From Minisyncoccota bacterium (lineage in GTDB: Bacteria; Patescibacteriota; Minisyncoccia; Phycocordibacterales; JABAAK01): a DNA stretch of 64,000 nt. The notes below the pieces were generated by a model. It searched no databases and was not told the origin of the DNA. It worked only from the letters and a program-made list of their open reading frames with translations. This document shows, one piece after another, positions 2,108 to 54,904 of the stretch. The stretch spans positions 295,671-359,670 of the forward strand of contig OZ244141.1 of NCBI GenBank assembly GCA_965216295.1, read 5' to 3'. The first letter of the stretch is position 1. Every line of letters starts with the position of its first letter. A program made the position numbers and the translations under genes.

Positions 2108-2164
2108 CATACAGATAATTATTTACATCAATAAATTTAAGGTTGAGTTTTTTATACATAACAC

Positions 2165-2190
2165 AGCTTATATTTTTTAAAATATAAGCT
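2165..2190. promoter_or_regulatory. perfect palindrome AGCTTATATTTT-tt-AAAATATAAGCT (12-bp arms) about 15 bp upstream of the methyltransferase start; candidate operator
   Basis: The inverted repeat was read directly. It lies between tRNA-Glu and the ATG at 2205. Confidence 0.4.
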
Positions 2191-2204
2191 ATACTTAACT
2201 TAAT

Positions 2205-3296
2205 ATGAGTAACACAAGGTGGAGCAGGATACCAAAAAATATAAGAAAAAATGTTCATGGAATGTGTAGCTATCTAGCGATGTTTCCACCAAATATTCCA
2301 AACTATTTTATTAAAAAATATACAAAAGAAGGTGATGTTGTTTTAGATCCATTTTCCGGAAGAGGTACTACTATCACAGAGGCTTCCTATCTCAACAGAA
2401 AGGCAATAGGTTCAGATTTAAACCCATTAGCAATAGTTTTATCTCGTGCCAAAGTTAGTGTCCCATCAAGAAATTCTATAATTAGAAGAATAAAAAAAAT
2501 TGAAACAGATTTTAAAAAATCAAAAAAAAATAGTATCATCAATCAAGAAAAAAATATAAAGATGATTTTTAATCCTAGTACACTAAGAGAATTAGTTTTT
2601 CTTCAAGATAATTTAAATTGGAAAAAAAATAGAATTGATAATTACATAACTGCAATGATTCTAGGGATTTTACACGGCGGATCAAAAAATTATCTATCAA
2701 TTCAAATGCCTAATACTTTTTCAATGTCTCCAAACTACATCAAAAGTTATATAAAAAAAGAAGGATTGAAAAAAGAATATAGAAATGTATTTAAATGTCT
2801 TCGTAAAAAATTTGAGAATTGTTATGATAAACCAAATATTGCAGGGAATGTATTTAAACAGAATGCATTAAAGATGAATAAGGTGAAAAAAAATAGCGTA
2901 AATTTGATAATCACATCACCACCATATTTAGACGTAATTAAATACGGACAATATAATTGGATAAGGCTTTGGTTTATAAAAGAGGGTGCGAGAAAGATAG
3001 ATCAAACACTATTTACATCTCAATCTCTAAATAAGTATGTTAATTTTATGAAAGATTTTTTAAACCAATCAAAAAAAGTACTAAAAAGAAACGGAAAAAT
3101 TATACTAATAATAGGTGATGTTAGAGGTTTAAATCTTGCGAAAAAAGTTTGGGAAAATAGCGCGGAACCACTCGGTTATGTAAAAGAATATTTGTTAAAG
3201 GATGAAATTGATGAAAACACAAAAACTACAAAAATATGGAATGAAAGAAAGGGAAAAGCTACGAAAATTGATAGAGTTCTTATTTTGTCAAACTAG
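2205..3296 (+). CDS. DNA amino-methyltransferase (N4-cytosine or N6-adenine), motif I then motif IV order
   Basis: 363 aa. Motif I-like VVLDPFSGRGTTITEA lies near the N-terminus and motif IV LIITSPPYLD about 190 aa later, with a putative target-recognition region between. Very AT-rich coding sequence. The 3' end overlaps the convergent GHKL gene by 9 nt. Confidence 0.75.
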   Translation: MSNTRWSRIPKNIRKNVHGMCSYLAMFPPNIPNYFIKKYTKEGDVVLDPFSGRGTTITEASYLNRKAIGSDLNPLAIVLSRAKVSVPSRNSIIRRIKKIETDFKKSKKNSIINQEKNIKMIFNPSTLRELVFLQDNLNWKKNRIDNYITAMILGILHGGSKNYLSIQMPNTFSMSPNYIKSYIKKEGLKKEYRNVFKCLRKKFENCYDKPNIAGNVFKQNALKMNKVKKNSVNLIITSPPYLDVIKYGQYNWIRLWFIKEGARKIDQTLFTSQSLNKYVNFMKDFLNQSKKVLKRNGKIILIIGDVRGLNLAKKVWENSAEPLGYVKEYLLKDEIDENTKTTKIWNERKGKATKIDRVLILSN

Positions 3297-5522
3297 CTTA
3301 TGAAAAATTAATAATTGTAATATTGTACTACTGGCGACAGAAAGCGCCTCATTTTTAAATTCATTGATTGTAGATTCATCTGCAGATTCACCTTTGTCAC
3401 CAACAAAAAGAGAATCAAGATTTTTTGAATGTTCTAAATTAAAACAGGAGTATGCAAGAAATATAGAATAGTGACTTTTCATCTTTTCAATATTTTTTAT
3501 TTTATTCTTTTTTATAAAAGATTGATAATATTTATTAGAGAGATTTATGAAAATTATAATATTATTTTTTGTTTCTTCATATTTTGCAAAATCTTTCTCA
3601 TTGTTAAAAACCCTTTTCCATATTTCGTAAGTTTTTTTATCATCTTTTGATACAGATTTAATTTCAGGAGAACCACGTAAATTTTTTTTATTACCAGAAT
3701 TCTCCTCAATAATAAATATCACCCTCCCTTCACTTATTAAATCTTTTTTATGCGAATTTAACAAAACATGAACTTTAAAATTTTTACCTATTTTTGCAAC
3801 ATTACTTAGAGCACATCTAATTCTGCTTCTACCGCCAAAGAAATTATCTATTTGTATAGAATCTTTTTTAATATATTTTTTACTTTCGTCAATTAATTTG
3901 AGTTGATAGTATTTTGAGGTCTCATTTGATAAATCAGATTCAATATTTAAAGTTAATATTTTACCTATTTTTGCATTTATAGGAGGTTGGTTTGTTATTT
4001 TTATATATGTAGGAAAATCTTTTGTTTCAATTATTTTTTTCTTTCCACCATCACCCGATCCATTACCACCCGATCCACCATCACCTTCAGTTTTTTCATC
4101 ACCCGAAATACTTATTTGTCCAACAAGTAAATTATTTTTTAACATTTTTGCTAAAATTTCTTGCATTTTTTCAGATCCCTTTTGCATACCTTTTGCTGCT
4201 TCTTCAGAATATTTTCTACTTTGTTCATCCAACAGGATAGGGTCATCAGAGATAAACTTAACTATCTCTTCTTTAATTTTCTGCCTAGATTCATTCGTTA
4301 ATCTTTGTCTATCTGTAATAAATGTCTTTTTTTTGCTTTCATTAGAAATTTTATTGCAGTTAACTTCTATAATTAAATTTTCTTTTAATTGTGGGAGTTT
4401 TGCATTTTCTTCAATTAGGCGTCTTGAAAATTTTCCATGTACTTGTCCATTGAATGTTACTAAAATGGGATTTTTACAATCATGTAAAAAACGATTTACC
4501 TTTTGACTTTCACCATTTTTATCATCCTTTAGATAATAGTATGTCAAAACTATTTCCTCCCCATCATTAAAATATTGAGATACTGTAGTTTTATTAAGTA
4601 TTTTATTTTCTTCAACATTATTTATCAACCTTCTTTTTAAACCTTGCATGTTTTTTACATTCCATTGCTCTGGTTTATCTTTTTTGTCTCTATTAAAATA
4701 CCCTATTTTATATGCAAATGCAGGGTTGAAAAGTATTTCATCACAGACCTTATAAAACTCACGTCCAATTATATTTTTTTCAAATTCAATGTGAAAAACA
4801 AGAGTGCCAAAAAAATCCTTTTTAAATCCTTTGTTAATTTCAGAATTAAAAGTTTCCTTCATTTCATCAAAGGGAATTGTTATTGGTAAATCGTCTTCAG
4901 ATGAAACTAGGTATTCATATTTTCCCTGTTTTGCAAACTCATCATCATCTAAGGAATTAAATCGTATAATTGTAAATGAAAGATTTGTATCTTTAACTGA
5001 ACAAATTATCGTATATTTATTACCACCGCAAACCGTCGATCCACCTTGACCAAAAGACCCCATTGTATATTTTTTTCTAAATTTATTAGAGGCATTTAAA
5101 GATAATATAGTATTTGTCATTTCTTCATTTGTTAAACCCACACCATTGTCCCAAAACAAAAAATTAGTAAATTTTTTTGTTTTATGTATTTCCACAAAAA
5201 TGTCATCTTTATGTATTTCTTCATTTTTTTCTTTTAAAAAATTAATAACATCATAAGGGCTATTAAAATTTTCAAATTCTTTATATTTTTTTGCAAATTT
5301 TTCTATATATGCATCAATTGAATTTGTTATACGTTCTAGAAGTAAACCCACATCAGCATCAGCTGAATGTACTGTTGAATAGTTTGCCTCTCTGTCACCC
5401 AAATCTCTCCATTTCAGTTTATCGTCATCATTCAAAGATGACACTATTTGATCAACTTCAACAGTTTCTATATTTCTTTTTTGCAAAAAGGATTTTATAA
5501 TTTTTCTGATGTCATTTCTCAT
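3288..5522 (-). CDS. MORC/Hsp90-like GHKL ATPase with Gly-rich linker and uncharacterised roughly 250-aa C-terminal domain
   Basis: 744 aa. Bergerat-fold motifs are present: N-box ERITNSIDAY, G1 box WDNGVGLTNEEM, G2 box MGSFGQGGSTVCG. A GDGGSGGNGSGDGGKKK linker precedes a C-terminal region with no recognisable motifs. The start ATG overlaps the stop of the upstream 75-aa ORF (ATGA). Confidence 0.7.
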   Translation of the reverse strand: MRNDIRKIIKSFLQKRNIETVEVDQIVSSLNDDDKLKWRDLGDREANYSTVHSADADVGLLLERITNSIDAYIEKFAKKYKEFENFNSPYDVINFLKEKNEEIHKDDIFVEIHKTKKFTNFLFWDNGVGLTNEEMTNTILSLNASNKFRKKYTMGSFGQGGSTVCGGNKYTIICSVKDTNLSFTIIRFNSLDDDEFAKQGKYEYLVSSEDDLPITIPFDEMKETFNSEINKGFKKDFFGTLVFHIEFEKNIIGREFYKVCDEILFNPAFAYKIGYFNRDKKDKPEQWNVKNMQGLKRRLINNVEENKILNKTTVSQYFNDGEEIVLTYYYLKDDKNGESQKVNRFLHDCKNPILVTFNGQVHGKFSRRLIEENAKLPQLKENLIIEVNCNKISNESKKKTFITDRQRLTNESRQKIKEEIVKFISDDPILLDEQSRKYSEEAAKGMQKGSEKMQEILAKMLKNNLLVGQISISGDEKTEGDGGSGGNGSGDGGKKKIIETKDFPTYIKITNQPPINAKIGKILTLNIESDLSNETSKYYQLKLIDESKKYIKKDSIQIDNFFGGRSRIRCALSNVAKIGKNFKVHVLLNSHKKDLISEGRVIFIIEENSGNKKNLRGSPEIKSVSKDDKKTYEIWKRVFNNEKDFAKYEETKNNIIIFINLSNKYYQSFIKKNKIKNIEKMKSHYSIFLAYSCFNLEHSKNLDSLFVGDKGESADESTINEFKNEALSVASSTILQLLIFHKLV

Positions 5523-5746
5523 AATCTAAACTTTTTATTTCTTTTATAATGAAACTTACTTTTTATATTTTTTACCTCTATTTCTATTTCTTTAAATATT
5601 TTTTGAATTTCCGCTTCATTATATTCATATGCACTTCTGTTAGCGCAATTTCCAAGTATTTTTAGAGACTTAAGAACCATGTTAGTTCTATAGTTAGCTA
5701 ATCTTCTAAATCTATCCCTTTTTTCCTTTGGTTTATTATTTATCAT
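5519..5746 (-). CDS. small basic protein, hypothetical; translationally coupled to the GHKL ATPase
   Basis: 75-aa ORF, Lys/Arg-rich, ATG start. Its stop overlaps the GHKL start codon, and an AT-rich putative promoter region (TATATATAT) lies upstream. Confidence 0.45.
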   Translation of the reverse strand: MINNKPKEKRDRFRRLANYRTNMVLKSLKILGNCANRSAYEYNEAEIQKIFKEIEIEVKNIKSKFHYKRNKKFRL

Positions 5747-5876
5747 AAATACGTAGTGTATTTATATATATATCATATCCTTATGTTATTTGTCAATTAT
5801 AAGGTGTCTTAGTGTTTAATAAAGAAAATTTGTGATTGTAAATATGGAGAAAAGGTATCAAAAAATAAACAAAACT

Positions 5877-6686
5877 CTATTCCTCCAAAATATAGTAGGT
5901 GATAGAAGAATATGAGGTTATCTTATTCTCACCAACACTAATAGGCACATCAGCTACATCTAACGACGAGGATTCTAAACTAACAGATTTGGCACCGTAT
6001 TGTGAAGAGTTTCGATATGGAGAAGCACCACCACCACCTATATTCACACTCATTACCTTACCGAGACGTATACCCGTCTCTTTTGATACCTTTTTCGCTC
6101 TCTCCTTTGCATTTTTCACTGAAAGGACAAGAGCATCATCTTGCAATTCTCGCTGTTTTTCAGGATCAACCAAGAACTGAAGATTACTCACATTTTCAAC
6201 ACCTTTGTCGGAGATAGCAGAGAGGATACCTGCAGCAGCATCTAAATCTCGTATCGTTATCGCAGTAGTATGAGTTACTTCATATCCTTTAAATACTCGT
6301 TTGCGAGTACCTTTTTTAGCAAGTATTTCATACTCATACTTTGGATGTATAGAATAGGTGATTGTTTTAACATCTTCGTCATCAATCTTAGCCTTTTTAT
6401 CCAAATAATTATATATATCAGACACCTTCTCAGAAACCGCAACTCTTGCTTGAGAAACATCATCATTCAATTCTCGAACAGTGAAACTCAACTGTGCTAT
6501 GTCTGGGATAGCGAGTACTTCTCCGTATCCAGTAAAGGTGAGCGTATCTCTCTCATTCAAATTAGCAACTCTATTTTCTCTGTATGTGTAGGATAAGACA
6601 GCAATAGAAATAACGACAAGTAAAACCGTAGCAGAAAGCATGAGTGCTATGAGAGCTTTGGTTTTTTTATCCATATCTGCGAACAT
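5877..6686 (-). CDS. SIMPL-domain (DUF541, YggE-like) periplasmic/membrane-anchored protein
   Basis: 269 aa with an N-terminal TM anchor. The C-terminal region shows the SIMPL-like pattern (ALVLSVKNAKERAKKVSKETGIRLGKVMSVN). Confidence 0.6.
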   Translation of the reverse strand: MFADMDKKTKALIALMLSATVLLVVISIAVLSYTYRENRVANLNERDTLTFTGYGEVLAIPDIAQLSFTVRELNDDVSQARVAVSEKVSDIYNYLDKKAKIDDEDVKTITYSIHPKYEYEILAKKGTRKRVFKGYEVTHTTAITIRDLDAAAGILSAISDKGVENVSNLQFLVDPEKQRELQDDALVLSVKNAKERAKKVSKETGIRLGKVMSVNIGGGGASPYRNSSQYGAKSVSLESSSLDVADVPISVGENKITSYSSITYYILEE

Positions 6687-6700
6687 CAGTATCAGTATAC

Positions 6701-7705
6701 CTATAATGTTTCAGAAGCGTCAACTGATGGAACACTCTCTAAAACAACACCATCATCTTTGTGACTTGTAATAAATGAAAACCACAATTCATAGTAACCA
6801 GGAATGTGCTTCGTGCCATTGTAAGCATTAATAACATCTCCATCTCGTTTCACCGTAACGCTGAGATTATCGTGTGAAAAGATTCTCTCTCCAGGGATGA
6901 TCTGAGAGTATTGAATAGCCGCAAACTGCTCACCAATTGGAATGATGTAGAACAATTCTTTTGCAAAAAATCGTTTATCGGTATGACTCACCGGAAAGAG
7001 TATCCTTTCATCTTGTTCATAGTCTCCGTATGGATAGACGCTGTAGTTTCTTAAGTGCCCAGTCTCTCTACTAACAACAGAGGTATTTGGGAATTTTGTT
7101 TTCACTTCACCAAAAGAGAGTAGTTGCAATGGCAGTAGTGTGAGTTTGGTTCCAGTATATTTTCCAATCACTGCTTCACCCCGTGATTGAGACCACAGTG
7201 ATTCTGTTTTTTTATCATACATGAGTAAGTTTGATTCCAAGAGGAGTCCACTCACACCAAATTCAAAAACCGCATCATCAATGCGCCTGTCGTACACTAT
7301 CCCAGAAGAGCAGAGTGGGCAAAAGGTAACGGCAATTGGTATACCCCCAACGATATCATTAATTATTTCATGCCATACCAAGATAGAGTAGGGATAAAAG
7401 ACACTCTCTCCATTGAGAGAAACATATATTCCTCTGCCATTGTCTTTCTCCTGAGCATCTTCCAGTGAAACACGCTTCGGACTGTAGAGCGCTGGTATGC
7501 CGTCTTTTGAGACTCCACCTGATAAAACGGTATCTATAGCAACAGAGGAGATACTGGTATCTGTCTTTAAACTGTATTTCTGAAAGGCATGAGCGCTAGA
7601 TTCCTCTTGTTTGTCATCATATAAGATTTGTTTTGTCTCGTACGAGGAGAACAGAGTGTAGCCGATAGGGATACTGACAAGAAAAACGAGTATATACCAT
7701 TTCAT
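6701..7705 (-). CDS. secreted/membrane-anchored hypothetical protein (DUF3179-like, TFCPLC motif)
   Basis: 334 aa with an N-terminal hydrophobic segment and a conserved-looking TFCPLCSSG motif. The family call is tentative. Confidence 0.45.
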   Translation of the reverse strand: MKWYILVFLVSIPIGYTLFSSYETKQILYDDKQEESSAHAFQKYSLKTDTSISSVAIDTVLSGGVSKDGIPALYSPKRVSLEDAQEKDNGRGIYVSLNGESVFYPYSILVWHEIINDIVGGIPIAVTFCPLCSSGIVYDRRIDDAVFEFGVSGLLLESNLLMYDKKTESLWSQSRGEAVIGKYTGTKLTLLPLQLLSFGEVKTKFPNTSVVSRETGHLRNYSVYPYGDYEQDERILFPVSHTDKRFFAKELFYIIPIGEQFAAIQYSQIIPGERIFSHDNLSVTVKRDGDVINAYNGTKHIPGYYELWFSFITSHKDDGVVLESVPSVDASETL

Positions 7706-9041: not shown

Positions 9042-9989
9042 TTACGCACCTCCATGTAATTGCAAATAGGCATGTTCTAACGCTTTCACTGCATCACCAG
9101 CTGCTATATTATTTTGATGAAAGATACCATCGGTACAATCTCCAGCAGCCCAAATACGGGCATGACTTGATTGTTGTGTTTTCGGATCAACAACAACACG
9201 TTGTATACCATCAAGTGTCACGAGATCTTTGAGAAGGGAAGTTTCAGGAATCAACCCTATCTCAACAAATACCCCTTGTACAGAAATTGTTTCTTCTTTA
9301 CCACTCTCTTTGTTGACATAGGTAAGCCCAGAGAGAAGTGTTTTACCAAGTATCTCTTTCGTGTCTACATTACCCAATGCTTTCATGCGCGGATGGGCAC
9401 ATACCTTTTCAACCGTAATAGCATCTGCTTTAAAGGCTGTGTGACGGTGGAGAAGGGTAACACTCTTTGCATATGCCAATAGCTGTGCTGCTGTTTCAAA
9501 TCCAGCGTTACCACCACCGATAACCGCGACATCTTTATCAGCAAATAGTGGTCCATCACACGAGGCGCAGTAGGTAAGTCCTTTATGTTCAAATGTATCA
9601 GCTCCGGGAACATTCAATTTCCGACGAGTCGATCCAGTGGCAAGGAAAATACCTTTTGCAGTAACCTGTGAACCATCTTTCAGGGTGATTGTTAACGTAT
9701 CACCGTTATCAACAATGGCAGTTGCTTTTTGTTTCTGTATTACGAATCGAGCACTTTCGTATGCACGAAGATGTTCTTGAAATGATTTTGCAAGATCACT
9801 ACCACTAATACTCTTTGTCCCTATCCAGTTTTCAATAGCAGGGGAGACAATACTTTGACCACCAAACTCTTCTACAATACAGACGGTATTGAGTTGTTTT
9901 CGTGCCGCGTAAATACCCGCCGCAGTCCCCGCTGGACCGCCACCGATAATCGCAATATCAACTATTTCCATAGGTTTGAAATGTTCCAC
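9042..9989 (-). CDS. trxB: thioredoxin-disulfide reductase
   Basis: 315 aa. FAD motif IIGGGPAGTAA, redox-active CASCDG (CxxC), and NAD(P)H motif VIGGGNAG. Confidence 0.85.
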   Translation of the reverse strand: MEHFKPMEIVDIAIIGGGPAGTAAGIYAARKQLNTVCIVEEFGGQSIVSPAIENWIGTKSISGSDLAKSFQEHLRAYESARFVIQKQKATAIVDNGDTLTITLKDGSQVTAKGIFLATGSTRRKLNVPGADTFEHKGLTYCASCDGPLFADKDVAVIGGGNAGFETAAQLLAYAKSVTLLHRHTAFKADAITVEKVCAHPRMKALGNVDTKEILGKTLLSGLTYVNKESGKEETISVQGVFVEIGLIPETSLLKDLVTLDGIQRVVVDPKTQQSSHARIWAAGDCTDGIFHQNNIAAGDAVKALEHAYLQLHGGA

Positions 9990-11155
9990 TCACTACGATG
10001 ACCGCGAGGCTTTACCTTAACATTTTCATCATGATCGTCATCATCATCAAATGATATATCTTCTTCTGTTTGATTTGGTGTGAACGTATCATCAATGAGT
10101 TCAACATCATCACTTTGGTTTGGCTGTTTTTTCTTGAATGCAGTTGGTATAAGAGAATTTGCCCCGTCTTTGTTTTTTTGAATAACATCAACGTCAGGAA
10201 ATGAAGTGGCAATAACGGTAACACGTATCTCACCTTGACGAAGATTCTTGTCCGTTGATGTTCCAAAGATAATACGAGCATTTGGATCAACAGATTCAGT
10301 AACACCTTGAGCGATAGTTTGGACCTCATCCATACTAATATCACGACGACTTCGTGATGCGATAGAGAAGAGAATGCGTTGCGCACCGCGGATAGAAATA
10401 TCAAGAAGTGGTGAGGAAGTTGCCCTTTGAACAGCGACTTCTGCACGACTTGCTCCTTTTGCCAATCCAATACCCATAAGAGCTGTACCGGAATTCTGCA
10501 TAATAGTTCGCACATCTGCAAAGTCAACGTTAATATCACCTGGATTGGTAATTAAGTCGGTAATCCCACGAACAGCTTTTAAGAGTACATCATCACTCAT
10601 AGCAAAGGCATCTGCCATACTAGTCTTCTTCTCAGATGCTTTCAAAATGTTGTCGTTTGGAATGACAATAATAGCATCACAGTTCTGAGAAAGTTCCGCA
10701 ATTCCTTCTTCGGCAAGTGCTACTCGTTTACCTCCCTCAAAACTAAATGGGCGAGTGATAACAGCAATCGTCAAGACACCGAGTTCTTTTGCTATCTTTG
10801 CAACGATAGGGCCAGCACCAGTACCAGTTCCACCACCCATACCACAGGCAACAAACACAAGATCTGCCCCTTTAATCATTTCAAGAATTTCATCAGACGC
10901 TTCTTCGGCAGCAGTGCGACCAATATTTGCGTTCATTCCTGTTCCGAGTCCTCGAGTGAGTTTGCTTCCGAGGTGTATTTTTTTACCTGCCTTCGATTGT
11001 TCAAGATCTTGAGAATCTGTATTTGCAACAATAAATTCAACACCAGCAATTCCCGACCGTATCATATGATTGGTTGCATTTTTACCAGAACCACCAATAC
11101 CAAACACTCGAATACGTGCAAATGTTTCCTCCTCAGGAAGCCTGATTTTTTTCAT
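9962..11155 (-). CDS. ftsZ: cell division GTPase FtsZ
   Basis: Tubulin signature GMGGGTGTGAGPIVAKIAK. The ORF track starts at a GTG at 11164; ATG (MKKIRL) at 11155 is preferred. Lies downstream of ftsA. Confidence 0.9.
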   Translation of the reverse strand: MKKIRLPEEETFARIRVFGIGGSGKNATNHMIRSGIAGVEFIVANTDSQDLEQSKAGKKIHLGSKLTRGLGTGMNANIGRTAAEEASDEILEMIKGADLVFVACGMGGGTGTGAGPIVAKIAKELGVLTIAVITRPFSFEGGKRVALAEEGIAELSQNCDAIIVIPNDNILKASEKKTSMADAFAMSDDVLLKAVRGITDLITNPGDINVDFADVRTIMQNSGTALMGIGLAKGASRAEVAVQRATSSPLLDISIRGAQRILFSIASRSRRDISMDEVQTIAQGVTESVDPNARIIFGTSTDKNLRQGEIRVTVIATSFPDVDVIQKNKDGANSLIPTAFKKKQPNQSDDVELIDDTFTPNQTEEDISFDDDDDHDENVKVKPRGHRSEWNISNLWK

Positions 11156-11242
11156 ATACACCACTATACCCCATATACCATAATTGTAAAATCGTTCTCA
11201 ATGGAAAAAAAGACACACAAAAATGTGATTTTTAATCACCGA

Positions 11243-12424
11243 TTAACTCACCTCATCGCTCACACGCGAGAGAAACTTCATAAATCGTTGAAAAAAACCA
11301 TCATCTTTCACTACTTTATGTTTTTTATGTGACCCTCCTGCGTCACACATCAGAGCATAACTAGTATTCCATATTGTTGGTGGCGTTGTCGTGTCAGTAA
11401 CAACACGAATATCTTTTTTTATTTTCGTATAGAGACCAACAGTATCAGAGAGTAGCTCAGGAAACTCTGGAAAGAGGCTTCCACCACCAATCAGAGTAAT
11501 GCCACCAGGGAATAGTTTATGAGTATCAATATCTTTCACATATGAAGCGATTTCTCGTGCGATGGAGAGGCGGTAAGTACTGAGCGCTTTTTGCAACGCA
11601 ATCTTGGGAAGTGGAGATTCTTTGTTGATATATTCTCGTTTCAATCGCTCTGCTTCTTGAACATTCACTCGCAGGGCAAGCGCAATGGCATTAGTGATTG
11701 ATGAACCACCAGCAGAGAGTGATCGTGCTCCAATTAAAACACCTCGTCTCCATATTGCTATGTTCGTAACATCAGCTCCGATGTCAACCACAACAGCCCC
11801 TATCTCACAATCCTCTTCAGAGATGAGCGTTTTGGTTGTTAAGGGAGATGGGATAATGGCATGTTCAACAACCAACGGTTCAAGGATTTTTTGGATAGCT
11901 TGAAGAGTTGCATTGGGATAGAGGAGACACCCATACTCTATTTCAATAGAACGTCGTGCTAAAGAGTCTTGGTAGGTGTGAGTTACATCGACACCGTCAA
12001 TGAGGATACTGATTGGTTCAATGGTGACAAAGAAATACTTTGGATAATCTTTCTGCAACTGTTCTTGTATTCTACTAACAAGTTGTTCCATGTAGTTTTC
12101 TCCAAAGACCATTGGTCGTTTGAGGTGGTGCTTCTTTTTTTTCCTGATAAACTGAGTGGCTGGATGACTTATCGACGCATAGATGGAATCAATCGGGGTA
12201 CCAATTTTTCCTTGCGTTACTTGGAGTGCGTGTTCAATTGCTTTTTTCAAAAAAGCTGGTTTTCGAATGGTACTTGCATGCATTCCTTTCGAAGTAACAA
12301 TCGTTCCTTCAAATGTCTCTCGTGCAGATGGTGTGTTTGGTGTGTCAGGTACTTGGTTGACGAGTACTTTGATAAAACCATTACCAATATCAAGTATTGC
12401 TGTTCCATGTTTTACCTTTCCCAT
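11243..12424 (-). CDS. ftsA: cell division protein FtsA (actin-like ATPase)
   Basis: 393 aa with actin-fold phosphate motifs (VVDIGADVTNIAIW, LIGGGS), sitting immediately upstream of ftsZ. Confidence 0.75.
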   Translation of the reverse strand: MGKVKHGTAILDIGNGFIKVLVNQVPDTPNTPSARETFEGTIVTSKGMHASTIRKPAFLKKAIEHALQVTQGKIGTPIDSIYASISHPATQFIRKKKKHHLKRPMVFGENYMEQLVSRIQEQLQKDYPKYFFVTIEPISILIDGVDVTHTYQDSLARRSIEIEYGCLLYPNATLQAIQKILEPLVVEHAIIPSPLTTKTLISEEDCEIGAVVVDIGADVTNIAIWRRGVLIGARSLSAGGSSITNAIALALRVNVQEAERLKREYINKESPLPKIALQKALSTYRLSIAREIASYVKDIDTHKLFPGGITLIGGGSLFPEFPELLSDTVGLYTKIKKDIRVVTDTTTPPTIWNTSYALMCDAGGSHKKHKVVKDDGFFQRFMKFLSRVSDEVS

Positions 12425-49334: not shown

Positions 49335-49742
49335 ATGAAACAAAAGGTACGGAAAAGTAAGTATGACGTACGGATTGGTCGCTCTGCGAGTGGGCAGGGT
49401 CTATTTACAAAAGCACCTATTCGAAAAGGGGACTTTGTGATTGAATACCATGGACCTATTATTTCACGTGAACGGGCAGATGCGATGGGAGGGCGGTATC
49501 TCTTTGAAGTGAGTGAACGGAAGGTTATCAATGGTTCGGTGAGGTACAACCTAGCACGCTATATCAATCATTCCTGTCGTCCAAACTGTGAGACTGATGT
49601 GGTGCGTGGGAAGGTGTATATCTATGCGAGACGCAATATTCGTATGGATGAGGAGTTACACTACGATTACGGTAAAGAGTACTTTGAAGAGTTTATTGAG
49701 CCTGCTGGGTGTCAGTGTGAGAAGTGTGCGGGTCGTCGGTAA
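49335..49742 (+). CDS. SET-domain protein (putative protein lysine methyltransferase)
   Basis: 135 aa with RYINHSCRPNCE (the NHSCxPN motif), DEELHYDYG (the ELxxDY motif), and a Cys-rich post-SET CQCEKCAG. Starts 3 nt after the smc stop. Confidence 0.75.
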   Translation: MKQKVRKSKYDVRIGRSASGQGLFTKAPIRKGDFVIEYHGPIISRERADAMGGRYLFEVSERKVINGSVRYNLARYINHSCRPNCETDVVRGKVYIYARRNIRMDEELHYDYGKEYFEEFIEPAGCQCEKCAGRR

Positions 49743-51132
49743 GGAGGTCTGTTTTATAAATTTCTTTTTGTGTTACATATTCTTTGAAAACTTTAAAAAA
49801 ACTTTTTGCCATCTGTTCGTAATAATTTTTGTCATATAAATTTTCATATTCATATTCTTTAGGAAAAGATTCACAGTATTCTCTAGACAAGACATCTTCT
49901 TGTTTTTTTAGTACAGAATCGTTTGATTGATTTTTTTGAAGTTGAAAGGTTTCATGCAACATGTAAGCACCGATATTTTCTAAATTGTGTATAGCATAAA
50001 AATTTTTATGACAAAGCACTGTTTTTTCTATTAAATATTTTTCTGCTGAATCAATAGCAGCAAGGAATTTTTCTTTATCATTATTAAAGATATGCAATAA
50101 AATTTCCATCATGAGATCAATGTTTGTTTTATTTGTTGCTTCTTGTGTGTTATGTTGCAAGACGTTAAGACTGAATGAAGGAAATTTTTGAAGTGTAAAA
50201 AGGTTTCTTAGATTTATTACTTTCATAGGAATAGCAGATTTTACAAAAAGAGCAATTATAAATTGAACTTCGTCATTCAATGGCTGTGGCGTTTGATTCA
50301 TTATTTCGGTATTACAATGTCCTAATACTATCTCTTGAAGTTTATTTAATACTTCTTTTTCTATATTGTATTGATATGGTTCTTTGGAGAAAAATTTATT
50401 TATATATCCATTAAAATCAGTTTCATTTCCATATATATGATGATAGACTTTTTCAAGATTATTAAAATCACCAACGAATATCACTCTATCAAAACCAAAT
50501 TTATTCTTTTCATCATCTTGCAAAGGAGAAAAGGCATTTAGTATTTTAAACGCATGTTTTGGTTCAAGGCGATCTAAATCATCTAATATCAAAATGTTTT
50601 CTTTAGCAAGATCCATTTTATCTTCTCTACCATCTTTTACTTCTTTCAATGCTTCAGAGATGAAATTTTCCAAACAACTATTATGTATTTTTTTTACAGT
50701 ACTTTGGACTTCTGAGTTTTCTCCATTTAAAAGTTTTTTAATGGTTTCAATAGTTTGTGATTTAATACCAACCAAAGATCCAAAACATTTTATTATAAGA
50801 TCTTTTGCATTTTTTAATTTTATTTTTCCATTTTCATCTTTTAAGAATTTATTAATGATAGGCTCGTGTTGCTCTGCTAGTTGTACAAATAAATCAGCTG
50901 CTATAACTTCTAGTATATCAACATCATTGTGTACTTGATATTTAACTGGGTATAAATGAAATGTATTATATTTTTCAGAATTAGCTCTAAAAAATTCATT
51001 TAAAAAGTATGTTTTTCCCATACCAAACGATGCACTAAAGAATATTCTTTTATTACTTTTTAATTCAATAAAAGTATTAAATCCCTCATTTTTAGTTTCT
51101 GTAGATATTATTGTTTTATCCATGTGTAGCAT
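49693..51132 (-). CDS. KAP-like P-loop NTPase, hypothetical
   Basis: 479 aa with Walker A FFSASFGMGKTYFL and Walker B ILILDDLDRL (the hhhhDDLDR type typical of KAP NTPases). The C-terminal 16 codons run through the left direct repeat into the antisense strand of the SET 3' end. Confidence 0.5.
   Translation of the reverse strand: MLHMDKTIISTETKNEGFNTFIELKSNKRIFFSASFGMGKTYFLNEFFRANSEKYNTFHLYPVKYQVHNDVDILEVIAADLFVQLAEQHEPIINKFLKDENGKIKLKNAKDLIIKCFGSLVGIKSQTIETIKKLLNGENSEVQSTVKKIHNSCLENFISEALKEVKDGREDKMDLAKENILILDDLDRLEPKHAFKILNAFSPLQDDEKNKFGFDRVIFVGDFNNLEKVYHHIYGNETDFNGYINKFFSKEPYQYNIEKEVLNKLQEIVLGHCNTEIMNQTPQPLNDEVQFIIALFVKSAIPMKVINLRNLFTLQKFPSFSLNVLQHNTQEATNKTNIDLMMEILLHIFNNDKEKFLAAIDSAEKYLIEKTVLCHKNFYAIHNLENIGAYMLHETFQLQKNQSNDSVLKKQEDVLSREYCESFPKEYEYENLYDKNYYEQMAKSFFKVFKEYVTQKEIYKTDLLTDDPHTSHTDTQQAQ
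49725..49741. repeat. direct repeat copy 1 (TGTGCGGGTCGTCGGTA) at the 3' end of the SET gene; att-like
   Basis: The identical 17-mer recurs at 52986..53002. Flanking similarity extends to about 22 bp with 2 mismatches. Confidence 0.85.
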
Positions 51133-51230
51133 TCTAACATATTAATGAAAAAATAAAATTATCATGAAGAAGGATAAAACTAAGGTTTTAAAACGTTACA
51201 AACAAATAGTTTGTAAAAATTTACTTAAGA

Positions 51231-52010
51231 TTGTATAATAAAAAGATGAACAAAAATAAAACTTTATTTTTCTCCAATCAATGGTTGAATTTTTCTAAAT
51301 TTATTTATGATGTTTTCTCAAAAACACTATTAATTGCGGCATTTATTACACTTATATATTTTCTATTTAAAGGATATTGGATAGAAGTCGGATTATTATT
51401 ATTATTTTCAATATTGATAGCACCAATTATTGAATTTCTGTTAGAAGAAATATTTCGTGTTACATTTTTTACTAAGAAAGAAAGGGTTCTTATGACTAAT
51501 TTTTCTAAGGATAATAACCTAAATGTTGATTCTGTAATGAGTCTTTATGCATCAGGAGCAAAAGACGACATGAAAACATTTTCTGAAAAAACTCAATTAT
51601 TTAAAATGCTATCTCCAGAAAAAAAAGGACTTTCGGCAGTGTTTGGTATTGCGCCTACGATGCTTATTAGTTTATTTGCATATGCAGGATTACTTAGTTA
51701 TTTTTCTACAGGGAATATATATAGTGGAATAGACATCAATTATTTAAACTACGCTTCAATATTGATATTATATCTTGCAGTCGATGTTAGAATTTTACTT
51801 GTTGAAATATATTTTTCCCGACAGCTTAGTGTAACTCCATATGAACAATTTATATTGCCTTTTAAAATAATTACAATACTGCTTTTATGTCTTTTTTTAT
51901 TTTTAAACATTAACTTATCTTATACATTAATATTCAGTGTCGGATTACCATTAATTTTTATATTTTCTATAATAATGTTTTATGGTATTGCGAAAAAGAA
52001 AGATTTGTAA
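51231..52010 (+). CDS. polytopic membrane protein, hypothetical
   Basis: 259 aa with several hydrophobic helices. AT-rich, inside the repeat-bounded segment. Confidence 0.45.
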   Translation: MYNKKMNKNKTLFFSNQWLNFSKFIYDVFSKTLLIAAFITLIYFLFKGYWIEVGLLLLFSILIAPIIEFLLEEIFRVTFFTKKERVLMTNFSKDNNLNVDSVMSLYASGAKDDMKTFSEKTQLFKMLSPEKKGLSAVFGIAPTMLISLFAYAGLLSYFSTGNIYSGIDINYLNYASILILYLAVDVRILLVEIYFSRQLSVTPYEQFILPFKIITILLLCLFLFLNINLSYTLIFSVGLPLIFIFSIIMFYGIAKKKDL

Positions 52011-52309
52011 GTAAGGGTGGAAAATTTATCAAGTGACGCACGGAAAACGAGAAAATCGTTTTTTAAAGTTTTATTCTGTATCTTTGTTGTTAAGTATTAT
52101 ATATTATTTTATATTTTTAACTACGAAGTAGTAGGGAAGAGCATCAAAGAAATTTTTTACTGTTTTTATTTTTGAAAGAGAATGAGGATATAGGTAGAAA
52201 ATCTTTACTAAACATAGTCAACATCGTATCACCTTTTTAATAATCAGTAAAAGGGTAATGAAAACAAATATTAAATCTGATACTAAAATAAGAAATGACA
52301 ATAATATTA

Positions 52310-52954
52310 TTATTTTTTATTTAAATATAAATCTCTTAAATATATGCCACCTATTTCAACAAATTCATTAGCAAAATCATACATTCCATTTTCATATGCG
52401 TAATTTTTCAGTAACACAATAACCTCACTATTACTTTGTATGAATTCTTTCATTGTTTTGAAAGAGCATTCCTGTATATCATATTTACTATCAAAATGTT
52501 GCCCTTCAAATTGTTTAAATAAGAAATCTTTTTCTTTCAATATCATTTTTTTAAGACCACTATTTTCTAATTTAGTTAACCCCAATTCTGTAAGAGCGGA
52601 AGGGGATTGTGATTTAACATTTATTGGAAACTTATCTTCTAAAACTCCTTGTGCTTTTATAATGCTACATCGTGAATCTTCAGGCAAAATACCGACATTT
52701 TTATTAGTTAATGCCTTACATATTAGTTTCAATGGGGAACTCAAATTTTCTCCCAATGATTGAAGATCTTTAGGTGTATCAAGTAATTTTTTAATTTTTT
52801 TCCCAACACCCGAAAAAAGACCTAAAACAATCCCCAAGGCAATTATCGTGGTAGATATGGTAGAAACAATATTAAGAATTTCTATCCAATTCATATTCAT
52901 AAGTATTATAACAAAATTAATAATATTTTGCAAAATCACTACTATTTCTATCAT
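52310..52954 (-). CDS. membrane-anchored hypothetical protein
   Basis: 214 aa. One or two N-terminal TM helices, then a soluble domain with no recognisable motifs. Confidence 0.4.
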   Translation of the reverse strand: MIEIVVILQNIINFVIILMNMNWIEILNIVSTISTTIIALGIVLGLFSGVGKKIKKLLDTPKDLQSLGENLSSPLKLICKALTNKNVGILPEDSRCSIIKAQGVLEDKFPINVKSQSPSALTELGLTKLENSGLKKMILKEKDFLFKQFEGQHFDSKYDIQECSFKTMKEFIQSNSEVIVLLKNYAYENGMYDFANEFVEIGGIYLRDLYLNKK

Positions 52955-52985
52955 ATCTGCAATATATCAATCAAAATACTATAAT

Positions 52986-53002
52986 TGTGCGGGTCGTCGG
53001 TA
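52986..53002. repeat. direct repeat copy 2 (TGTGCGGGTCGTCGGTA)
   Basis: Identical to 49725..49741. In-frame it reads C-A-G-R-R-stop, as does the SET gene end. Confidence 0.85.
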
Positions 53003-53072
53003 GGGATGAAAGTAAAAAATTATTAAAATCCACAAAAAGAAAAATAGAGAAGGAAATAGAAAACGCACAGCA

Positions 53073-53104
53073 GTAGAAAGAATCGAACTCTCGTTTCGTG
53101 CTTG
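53073..53104 (-). repeat. partial tRNA-Gly copy (T-arm to anticodon-stem segment), 29 of 32 identities to the tRNA-Gly gene at 54035..54066
   Basis: gtagaaagaatcgaactctcgtttcgtgcttg here versus gtagggagaatcgaactcccgtttcgtgcttg in the gene. Same orientation. Lacks the acceptor 3' end. Confidence 0.7.
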
Positions 53105-53152
53105 ATTTGTACACATTGATATTTTTAATATCATAAATTATAATAACTACAT

Positions 53153-53359
53153 ATGAATAACTACTTTGAAATGTATTTCAACAGGATGTTTAAGAAAAAA
53201 AATCTATTGAAAGTATGGTTTGATAGTGGTAGTTTTTGGAAAAAAGTTTTTGCTGTTATTGGGCTTTTTGCATGTTATACATCATATGTACTCTTTGCGC
53301 TCTTTATAGTCTATAAAGTATCATATTGGATATCAGTGTACATATATTCACGATATTAA
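53153..53359 (+). CDS. small membrane protein, hypothetical
   Basis: 68 aa with one TM (VFAVIGLFACYTSYVLFALFIV). AT-rich. Confidence 0.3.
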   Translation: MNNYFEMYFNRMFKKKNLLKVWFDSGSFWKKVFAVIGLFACYTSYVLFALFIVYKVSYWISVYIYSRY

Positions 53360-53443
53360 GGTGGAGCAAAATACGGAAAGTGTGTAGAGATTGATAGGGT
53401 AGTGAGAATATATTTTTAAAATAAAAATCTTATTTTATTTCAA

Positions 53444-53986
53444 TTATGGAAAAATATTGAAAAATACAAGAACCAAAAGTAGCGAAGGGGATAGTAAAAG
53501 AGAGGTAAATAGAAAGTCTTTACTCAACAAGGTGGTAAAAAAATTTGAATCTTTCGCGAGTGGTTCACCATATTTATTTTTATCTGCATCACCTTTTTTA
53601 AAACATAACCAAAGAATAAAAAGAATATATATTATACATGAACTTGAATAAATTAAACTAGTAAAAGGAACCTCTATTTCATGAAATCTATTTTCCTGAA
53701 TTATAGCCAGTGGCAATTCTAAGACGATATACATTGGTAAAAAGATTAATATCCACCAACCACTTGCATTAAAATCATGCAATCTTTTAACCATAAAGAT
53801 TGTTAAAATAAAAGCTATAATGAATACGAAAAAATAGTCTAAAAAATAGTCTAAAACACTAGGAGGTTGAAAAAATTGACGACCGTACAAGTTTAATAAA
53901 AAAGGAACAGAAAAAAATATCATTAAAGACATCCCGATCCCAAAAATATAAAATTTTCTATTTATTCTATCATTAATTTTTTCCAT
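53444..53986 (-). CDS. DUF805-family inner membrane protein
   Basis: 180 aa with the RLHDFNASGWWIL motif characteristic of DUF805 (YhaH-like) proteins, and multiple TM helices. Confidence 0.6.
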   Translation of the reverse strand: MEKINDRINRKFYIFGIGMSLMIFFSVPFLLNLYGRQFFQPPSVLDYFLDYFFVFIIAFILTIFMVKRLHDFNASGWWILIFLPMYIVLELPLAIIQENRFHEIEVPFTSLIYSSSCIIYILFILWLCFKKGDADKNKYGEPLAKDSNFFTTLLSKDFLFTSLLLSPSLLLVLVFFNIFP

Positions 53987-54026
53987 ATAACGTTATTACT
54001 ATTATACCTATCGTTTAATTTCTAAA

Positions 54027-54100
54027 TGGTGCGGGTAGGGAGAATCGAACTCCCGTTTCGTGCTTGGGAAGCACGCGTCATACCACTAAACTATACCCGC
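54027..54100 (-). tRNA. tRNA-Gly (anticodon CCC), CCA encoded
   Basis: Reverse complement gives GCGGGTA-TA-GTTTAGTGGTATGAC-G-CGTGC-TTCCCAA-GCACG-AAAC-GGGAGTTCGATTCTCCC-TACCCGC-A-CCA. Confidence 0.8.
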
Positions 54101-54166: not shown

Positions 54167-54904
54167 CTACAATGTGTACTTACACAAACGAGTATCCATA
54201 ACACCAAGACGATCAATGTGTCGTTCTGCTTCTTCTGCTTTGTCAAAGATGGTAACTAATGAAAGATCTCGTGGACTAATCGTTTTATGCTTCTTTGCAA
54301 ATTCTTCTTCCAAAATAGCGTAGATAGGATCCCAGTACTCTTTACCCATCAAGATAATAGGAACAATCTCTGCTTGTTTAGTTTGAATTAAGGTTAATAG
54401 CTCAAAGAGTTCATCAAGTGTCCCAAAACCACCCGGGAAGAATATATATACCTCTGAGGCACACGATAAGATGGTTTTACGAATAAAAAAATGATCAAAA
54501 GTAATACTTCTATTAACAAACTTGTTCACTTCCTGTTCCTCTGGAAGAAGGATGTTGACACCAGCAGAATCACCTTGGACGAGATAGGCACCACGATTAG
54601 CCGCCCGCATAATGCCTCCAGCACCTCCGGTAATAATGGAAAACCCCTTTTTGGCAAGCATTGCTGCCAACTTCTCTGCTTCTTCATAGTAACGGTTATC
54701 TAAGGACTCACGAGCTGATCCAAAAAATGACGCTGAGAGTTCATAACGGCGTAGAAAAAGAAGACCACGGAAAAATTCAAAAAAGACAAAAAGGGAAATT
54801 TTCATAACACGGAAAAAACTAATACTCGGTGGCCTAGAAAAACCAATTTTCTTTTTTCCATATTGTGGGGGTGTCTCATTAAAATGTTTTGTGGGTAGAG
54901 ACAT
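54167..54904 (-). CDS. LOG-family protein (cytokinin riboside 5'-monophosphate phosphoribohydrolase-like); true start probably internal, near 54805
   Basis: GGAGGIMRAANRGA and PGGFGTLDELFE motifs of the LOG/TIGR00730 family. The N-terminal extension in the ORF track is hydrophobic and dubious. Confidence 0.65.
   Translation of the reverse strand: MSLPTKHFNETPPQYGKKKIGFSRPPSISFFRVMKISLFVFFEFFRGLLFLRRYELSASFFGSARESLDNRYYEEAEKLAAMLAKKGFSIITGGAGGIMRAANRGAYLVQGDSAGVNILLPEEQEVNKFVNRSITFDHFFIRKTILSCASEVYIFFPGGFGTLDELFELLTLIQTKQAEIVPIILMGKEYWDPIYAILEEEFAKKHKTISPRDLSLVTIFDKAEEAERHIDRLGVMDTRLCKYTL

Follow-up and report, generated by a model that had tools for sequence, protein, structure and literature searches.

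Introduction

Defense islands and insertion hotspots are found between conserved core genes, often adjacent to tRNA genes. In the tRNA gene (tDNA) islands catalogued by Islander (PMC4383910), a regenerated intact tRNA gene stands at one end and a displaced 3′ fragment of the same gene lies at the other, in direct orientation on the 3′ side of the gene; the crossover sites fall into classes that include anticodon-centered and T-stem sites. Related remnants are the cis-mobilizable elements (CIMEs) that arise as integrative and conjugative elements (ICEs) or integrative and mobilizable elements (IMEs) accrete in tandem and decay, as described by Pavlovic et al. (2004) in the account that a review gives of their work (PMC5704250). 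Here, we analyze 64,000 nucleotides (nt) of a Minisyncoccota bacterium (GenBank assembly GCA_965216295.1, contig OZ244141.1, positions 295,671 to 359,670), referred to as the window, in which an AT-rich island between a SET gene and a tRNA-Gly(CCC) gene contains a 32-bp partial copy of that tRNA gene.

We propose that the 32-bp stretch is probably a displaced, decaying fragment of tRNA-Gly(CCC), located at the distal junction of a small block (block B) with a DUF805 gene and a 68-amino-acid (aa) open reading frame (ORF), and that the island is a decayed tandem array of integrase-less, CIME-like remnants from repeated site-specific insertion at the 3′ ends of tRNA-Gly and SET. Block B would have entered by site-specific insertion into the 3′ part of tRNA-Gly, and a larger neighbor (block A) by site-specific insertion into the 3′ end of SET. 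Each insertion would regenerate its target gene and leave behind a displaced copy of the target’s 3′ end, and later deletion and recombination would have removed the recombinase genes, cut the tRNA copy short, and rearranged the cargo. A tyrosine integrase would have made the junctions, and the events may have followed in this order.

Results

A partial tRNA-Gly copy inside an AT-rich island

An initial annotation made from the sequence alone had read a 32-bp stretch as a truncated direct copy of the nearby tRNA-Gly gene. The match itself is clear: GTAGAAAGAATCGAACTCTCGTTTCGTGCTTG, at 53073-53104, pairs with 54035-54066 in direct orientation at 29 of 32 positions, with a start-to-start spacing of 962 bp. 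When up to three mismatches were allowed, the window contained only these two copies of the 32-mer, so the worry that it might recur at unrelated places was not borne out there, and 100 dinucleotide-preserving shuffles of the window gave no match. Only its short length would speak for a meaningless chance similarity, which is effectively refuted by the shuffles, by the correct orientation and position of the stretch, and by a full-length tRNA-Gly copy at the orthologous place in a sister strain (contig L044). The intact gene is the single ARAGORN tRNA-Gly call at the locus (Table 1), and its 3′ end points toward lower coordinates, facing both the island and the fragment. We conclude that it is the regenerated target gene, on the side of the left attachment site (attL).

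The fragment corresponds to positions 35-66 of the tRNA gene: it opens with the last base of the anticodon, takes in the 3′ strand of the anticodon stem, the variable region, and the entire T arm, and closes with the first 3 nt of the acceptor 3′ strand. Its boundary thus falls precisely within the anticodon loop, from where it extends in the direction of the tRNA 3′ end. Past these 32 bp, the rest of the acceptor 3′ strand has degraded beyond recognition and is not simply missing, so the earlier statement that the copy lacks its acceptor 3′ end describes what can be recognized past those first 3 nt and not a clean absence. Rfam did not detect the fragment at E<=10. The three differences from the tRNA gene (G48A, C61T, and C62T) all lie within the T stem, and they keep its pairing, with G48:C62 becoming A:U and G49:C61 becoming G:U. 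Under a simple model of three AT-directed transitions on 17 G/C positions, such a pairing-keeping outcome has P ~0.018, which argues against a randomly decayed copy of the present gene. Instead, the pattern suggests that the fragment was once part of a working, slightly different tRNA allele, as would be the case for a displaced host fragment.

The island (49743-54026, 4.3 kb) has a G+C content of 0.262, compared to 0.400 for the remaining window. The drop from ~0.42 to ~0.26 occurs exactly between the SET stop codon (49742) and the tRNA (54027), which supports the view that 49.7-54.0 kb is a single, compositionally foreign island. It fills the interval between convergent core genes, with LOG and tRNA-Gly on the minus-strand side and SET on the plus strand. 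Duplicated 3′ ends of both SET and tRNA-Gly sit mid-island, 70 bp apart, an arrangement that two back-to-back insertions into target-gene 3′ ends would leave. The spacer between them has no homolog in L044 and is a candidate remnant of the original SET/tRNA intergenic region.

Table 1. Features of the island and its flanks, in window coordinates
Feature	Position	Strand	Details
SET gene	49335-49742	plus	last codons and stop within the first SET-end repeat copy
KAP-family P-loop NTPase gene, 479-aa ORF	49693-51132	minus	Pfam PF07693; PADLOC PDC-S20, E = 9e-10 (weak)
SET-end repeat, first copy	49722-49745	plus	last SET codons and stop; reverse complement abuts the KAP gene 3′ end
Block A	49743-52985		3.2 kb, G+C 0.26; bounded by the two SET-end copies
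259-aa membrane ORF	51231-52010	plus	
Remnant of a gene like DUF805-2 of L044, 3′ end and downstream region	52091-52218	minus	85% identical to L044 9749-9871; tblastn; repeat D13
214-aa ORF	52310-52954	minus	
SET-end repeat, second copy	52983-53006	plus	17 exact, 22/24; reads Cys-Ala-Gly-Arg-Arg-stop like the gene
Block A end	52985 side		AATTATAG
AT-rich spacer between second SET-end copy and tRNA fragment	53003-53072		70 bp, G+C 0.286
Spacer side	starts at 53003		GGATGAAAG
Partial tRNA-Gly copy (displaced tDNA fragment/scar)	53073-53104	minus	29/32 match to 54035-54066; repeat family D3
Block B	53105-54026		0.92 kb, G+C 0.26; DUF805 gene and 68-aa ORF; 98.4% identical to L044 6373-7310
Block B end	53105 side		GTGTACAAAT
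68-aa hydrophobic ORF	53153-53359	plus	protein 100% identical in L044
DUF805 membrane protein gene, 180 aa	53444-53986	minus	Pfam PF05656, E = 3.5e-14
Flank between tRNA 3′ end and DUF805 start	53987-54026	minus	TTTAGAA at 54020-54026
Block B end	54019 side		ATTAAACGATAGG
Intact tRNA-Gly(CCC), CCA encoded	54027-54100	minus	ARAGORN; Rfam tRNA 68.2 bits; identical to tRNA-1 of L044
LOG/TIGR00730-type gene, conserved core flank on the tRNA side	54167-54904	minus	Pfam; 99% identical in L044; synteny with SET in L052 and L053

A strain-specific block at the tRNA 3′ end

Large DNA collections contained no close relative: a SET-protein scan of genome contigs yielded 40 loci, the best 66% identical and none with a tRNA-Gly beside SET, and the best LOG match among metagenome contigs had 48% identity. 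Searches for exact matches to the LOG, SET, and 214-aa proteins of the window and to protein P0121 returned none. A LOG protein 99% identical to that of the window turned up in a protein database, and it is encoded on the 10.7-kb contig L044. By blastn, L044 1-1977 matches window 55993-54017 at 99.1%, covering LOG and an identical tRNA-Gly (tRNA-1), and L044 6373-7310 matches window 54042-53110 at 98.4%, covering the DUF805 gene (DUF805-1 in L044) and the 68-aa ORF. Between these two stretches, L044 1978-6372 (4.4 kb) is without a counterpart at this window position and follows exactly after the tRNA 3′ end. This extra block encodes a MORN protein, a RelA/SpoT-like protein, two small ORFs, and a KAP protein (KAP-1), whose gene has a DNA identity of only ~70% to the window KAP gene (49.7-51.1 kb). 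Its left border is the tRNA 3′ end plus seven bases (TCTCCCTACCCGCACCATTTAGAA) and its right border is TCTCCCTACCGACCCGCACCATTTAGAA; together they form a 25/28-nt direct repeat that begins at the T-stem 3′ strand and includes the TTTAGAA found at 54020-54026 of the window. The window is the empty site for the 4.4-kb L044 block, whose two junctions repeat the tRNA 3′ end in direct orientation. With this indel and the shift in base composition, the insertion hotspot that the initial annotation had placed at 49.7-54.0 kb is well founded.

In L044, the place of the 32-bp fragment is taken by a nearly full-length degenerate tRNA-Gly copy (pseudo-tRNA-2, 7310-7382), which matches tRNA-Gly in register over positions 4-73. 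It opens with ATA where the gene has GCG, so that the 1:72 and 3:70 pairs are lost, and it scores 38.7 bits in Rfam, compared to 68.2 for the functional gene. To the left of the relics, both strains share a sequence ending in ...ATCAATGTGTA, which is followed by CAAAT and the 3′ half in the window and by the whole copy in L044. Truncation at the anticodon loop may thus be secondary in the window and not the original attachment (att) boundary. The earlier description of the fragment as an old, eroded att holds for a degraded, tRNA-derived border, but the reach of the L044 copy and this possible secondary truncation qualify it. The L044 arrangement, in which all tRNA-derived sequences are in direct order, is tRNA-1, the 4.4-kb block, the short 3′-end repeat, block B, pseudo-tRNA-2, and further cargo, namely a 110-aa ORF, an overlapping KAP-2/DUF805-2 pair, a ZorB2-like gene, and more until the contig ends. 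The G+C content of the L044 island is 0.254, compared to 0.393 for the L044 core.

A nearly whole distal copy could also have arisen without an integrase. A circular element or imported DNA with its own tRNA-Gly could have undergone RecA-type Campbell insertion at the chromosomal tRNA-Gly, leaving two whole copies on either side of the cargo, of which the distal one decayed and, in the window, lost its 5′ half. The homology of pseudo-tRNA-2 over positions 4-73 and the ~13 kb of island DNA without an integrase agree with this scenario, and the 15-28 nt repeats at the other junctions could serve homologous or illegitimate recombination as well. However, the start of the window fragment precisely at the anticodon loop and the short T-stem/3′-end repeat around the L044-only block correspond to the two canonical integrase crossover classes. 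A 70-nt homology is also a poor substrate for RecA-dependent insertion, and the SET-end duplication spans only 17-24 bp. We regard RecA-type insertion as unlikely.

The duplicated SET end and the KAP gene junctions

Block A contains the KAP NTPase gene, the 259-aa membrane ORF, a DUF805 3′ remnant, and the 214-aa ORF. The neighboring 17-bp repeat reported in the initial annotation is exact (TGTGCGGGTCGTCGGTA, at 49725-49741 and 52986-53002) and extends to 22/24 (repeat family D6). Both copies finish in-frame at a stop codon. In SET homologs, the tails after the last Cys are variable, which implies that the SET gene would tolerate an exchanged end. The PF07693 score of the window KAP protein (29.2 bits) is above the gathering cutoff of 20, and KAP-1 of L044 scores 41.9 bits. 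The remnant at 52091-52218 shows that block A formerly held a module like KAP-2/DUF805-2. The KAP ORF extends ~50 nt through the repeat, antisense into SET (49693-49742), and the resulting extra tail (TDLLTDDPHTSHTDTQQAQ), which lies past the conserved C-terminus, probably has no meaning. On the opposite strand, the SET stop-region repeat (CCCTACCGACGACCCGCAC; window 49722-49770 and 52983-53010) reads like the tRNA-Gly 3′ end (CCCTACCCGCAC) interrupted by 7 extra nt.

All three KAP proteins share a conserved C-terminus that finishes with ...KE(I/V)YK (...KEIYK in the window). The KAP-2 gene overlaps DUF805-2 directly, and the window KAP and KAP-1 genes go on with ACAGAYCTCCYTACCGAC(GAC)CCGCAC. 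In the window, this motif, which is the 17-bp repeat in reverse complement, leads to the SET stop region; the L044 version continues into ...CCGCACCATTTAGAAAC and then DUF805-1. The motif resembles the tRNA 3′ end (CTCCCTACCCGCACCA) with inserts of 4 nt (CGAC) in L044 and 7 nt (CGACGAC) in the window. The resemblance would agree with a set of related elements carrying KAP genes, for which the target was the 3′ end of tRNA-Gly in some cases and that of SET, which looks similar, in others. Taken further, the motif could denote a family of small KAP-NTPase/DUF805 cargo elements without an integrase in the Candidate Phyla Radiation (CPR), whose attachment site, CTCCYTACCGAC(GAC)CCGCAC, would lie where the KAP gene ends or where KAP meets DUF805 and would mimic the tRNA-Gly 3′ end. 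An unseen recombinase acting in trans would insert these elements at the 3′ end of either tRNA-Gly or SET, and the L044 site (CGAC insert, tRNA-type flanks) would be a target-switch hybrid. We consider this extension quite improbable; the sole lead toward novelty at this locus is the tRNA-like motif that recurs where KAP genes end and within the SET stop region. At the L044 junction itself (6350-6390), the motif, its 4-nt insert, and tRNA-type flanks occur together.

The same junctions could be read as those of a single circularly permuted element with its attachment site between KAP and DUF805. Insertion would then bring DUF805 next to the tRNA and KAP next to SET, and the internal tRNA fragment and SET-end copy would be later scars. 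Two observations favor this idea: KAP-1 and DUF805-1 are joined in L044 by a ~40-nt insert whose left part is the window’s KAP/SET junction and whose right part is its tRNA/DUF805 junction, and the overlapping KAP-2/DUF805-2 pair is without that insert. But the window KAP protein is 49% identical to KAP-1, yet the DUF805 proteins are 98% identical, and the L044-only block has no DUF805 at its tRNA-proximal end. Moreover, the tRNA fragment, spacer, and SET end in mid-island look chromosomal and not element-internal, and KAP homologs elsewhere are not followed by DUF805. We judge a permuted element to be very unlikely.

Cargo of the island

As initially described, the 68-aa ORF and the DUF805 gene are the only genes between the tRNA and its fragment. 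The PF05656 score of the DUF805 protein (53.6 bits) is above the gathering cutoff (25.7), and the protein is 98% identical to DUF805-1 and 49% identical to DUF805-2 of L044. The 68-aa protein was found in L044 and the source genome only; a strong promoter-like site for its ORF (53116-53144, 11/12 match) abuts the tRNA fragment. At the other end of block B, window 53987-54012 is homologous to the KAP-2/DUF805-2 junction of L044.

In L044, DUF805 is the downstream partner of a KAP NTPase gene. The suggestion that DUF805 genes might be typical tRNA-adjacent cargo did not survive this comparison, and DUF805 is better described as a lineage-specific partner of KAP. KAP homologs at four other loci (L045, L046, L047, and L054) lie in defense-like islands with restriction-modification, GmrSD, NERD, Fic, and AAA_15/21 genes; DUF805 follows KAP at none of them, and the tRNA-like motif is missing from all four, which means that the KAP-DUF805 pairing is not general. 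We found no paper linking KAP NTPases with DUF805 and no relevant paper on CPR tRNA islands. In L046, the KAP homolog (9844-11305, 46% identical) begins 83 bp after a tRNA-Met, with NERD and other accessory genes nearby.

Overall, the island cargo resembles that of defense loci in its gene families. KAP is present in both strains, and in the window it is the sole match to a defense-candidate family (Table 1). L044 adds a RelA/SpoT-like gene (3056-4087; PADLOC PDC-S33, E = 1e-53) and a Zorya-type, ZorB2-like gene (9879-10704 region, E = 2e-56) followed by a membrane ORF, after which the contig ends before the completeness of the system can be judged. Among viral contigs, there was no match to the tRNA half and there were only one weak KAP match and two weak DUF805 matches; this provides no evidence for a phage parent, and no parent element was found there.

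The LOG/SET interval in distant relatives

In the genome collection, the nearest SET genes (64-66% identical) belong to Paceibacterota/Kaiserbacteria metagenome-assembled genomes, which by sequence similarity makes the host a Paceibacterota-like CPR bacterium. Two loci with more distant LOG proteins, L052 (59% identical) and L053 (55%), keep the order ybaK-L27-p102-LOG, convergent to SET-smc-rnc-nusB. The LOG-to-SET interval measures 1.1 kb in L053, 2.2 kb in L052, 4.4 kb in the window, and >8.8 kb in L044, with unrelated contents; in L052 and L053 its small genes are unrelated, tRNA-Gly is absent, and none of the island proteins has a homolog there. Since these two loci retain the synteny without the island, the island is not ancestral in the clade, an outcome that answers an objection foreseen in the initial annotation, and the LOG/SET interval is a variable spot. 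The L053 interval has a tRNA-Pro(CGG) (11370-11443) in place of tRNA-Gly, and tRNA content there is variable too. A complete Paceibacterota genome (L001, OY764332.1; SET 64% identical) was unusable as an empty site due to rearrangement of the region. In L001 10388-16163, 4.7 kb separates the SET and L27/ybaK neighborhoods, the L27 side is inverted, and LOG and tRNA-Gly are both absent, indicating that the neighborhood was rearranged in that lineage.

Elsewhere in the window, a second AT-rich island (2109-5870, G+C 0.25-0.30) lies directly after tRNA-Glu(CTC) (2036-2108). It encodes a type II DNA methyltransferase (2205-3296; PADLOC MTase_II, E = 1.8e-43), a 75-aa ORF, and a 744-aa ORF (3288-5522, minus strand) without a PADLOC match. 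Neither a tRNA-Glu repeat nor an integrase was seen in this island.

Conserved flanks around variable content raise the possibility that the cargo was swapped by homologous recombination in the LOG/tRNA and SET/smc flanks and in shared island genes, with the tRNA pieces as relics of an old local tRNA-Gly duplication. In keeping with such exchange, identity changes abruptly at the block borders, from 98.4% to no homology, and the island is a mosaic of paralogs, with KAP proteins 42-49% identical and the DUF805 remnant at 52091-52218. The island after tRNA-Glu, which is without a tRNA repeat, also fits. Flank exchange leaves three features unexplained, however: the 4.4-kb indel that ends exactly in the tRNA 3′-end direct repeat, the duplication of the SET stop region that brackets block A, and the att-like orientation and boundary of the fragment. 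We therefore consider exchange through the flanks to be distinctly improbable as the origin of the island.

Discussion

Several lines of evidence lead us to favor repeated site-specific insertion, with the 3′ ends of tRNA-Gly and SET as its targets. Where the repeats lie, how they are oriented, and where they stop all fit anticodon-centered and T-stem crossover classes (PMC4383910), and the 4.4-kb L044 indel falls exactly at the tRNA 3′-end repeat. Both targets are regenerated, the composition in between is foreign, and the T-stem differences preserve pairing. Likewise, copies of the SET 3′ end lie on both sides of block A, 17 bp exact (22/24).

A number of observations weigh against this model. 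In Pfam scans of every island ORF from the window and L044, across ~13 kb of island DNA, no domain of an integrase, an excisionase, or another recombinase was found. Presence and absence with junctions at repeats is seen for the 4.4-kb L044 block; both strains compared carry block B, and no empty site for it was found. Pseudo-tRNA-2 exceeds the usual length of an att identity block, and other mechanisms would fit it as well. Local alignment detected no significant homology between the strains to the right of the two relics, and the distal copies are far more divergent than the adjoining 98.4% block. The divergent relics and non-homologous downstream DNA imply a history that includes replacement events, which two genomes are insufficient to resolve, and the close-relative evidence comes from one strain, L044. 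Regarding the tRNA-targeted integrative element put forward in the initial annotation, the tRNA-derived far border of the accessory block stands, whereas the recombinase and the empty site of block B are missing; since the island DNA contains no recombinase gene, we infer such an element from its traces.

The locus shares most of its layout with Islander tDNA islands (PMC4383910), including the regenerated tRNA gene at one end, the displaced cognate 3′ fragment that lies directly oriented at the far end, downstream of the tRNA 3′ end, the foreign base composition in between, and boundaries at the anticodon loop (window) and the T-stem/3′ end (L044-only block). It differs in that Islander requires an integrase gene and this island has none. 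In addition, the block is very small (0.92 kb), the acceptor end of the window fragment is degraded, and L044 has a nearly whole tRNA copy instead of a 3′ fragment.

With CIMEs, as outlined in the review cited above (PMC5704250), the island has in common that integration and transfer genes are lost while att-like repeats still bracket blocks A and B, and that several tandem blocks with internal att copies sit at the 3′ end of the target, as in L044. The use of a protein-gene 3′ end as a target beside the tRNA is another parallel, with SET here and fda in Streptococcus thermophilus. Unlike the situation for CIMEs, no functional parent element or integrase is known for this lineage, and the host is an uncultivated CPR bacterium. 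The repeats are also partly eroded, which makes present-day cis-mobilization doubtful.

The conserved flanks and strain-variable content at LOG/SET are typical of defense islands, and the cargo matches the defense or defense-candidate families ZorB2, PDC-S33, and KAP/PDC-S20, with PADLOC families taken as a proxy for defense genes. The differences are that the window’s own cargo has only the weak PDC-S20 match (E = 9e-10) and that DUF805 and the small ORFs are without known function.

Taken together, the locus is an ordinary insertion-hotspot scar and reveals no new mechanism. Its interest lies in the setting: an ultra-small, Paceibacterota-like CPR genome carries a tRNA-linked variable island with strain-level turnover and defense-like cargo, and the scars at its junctions resemble those that classical integrative elements leave, even though no recombinase is left. 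Recognizing such scars is of use for annotating CPR genomes and for locating their accessory and defense genes.

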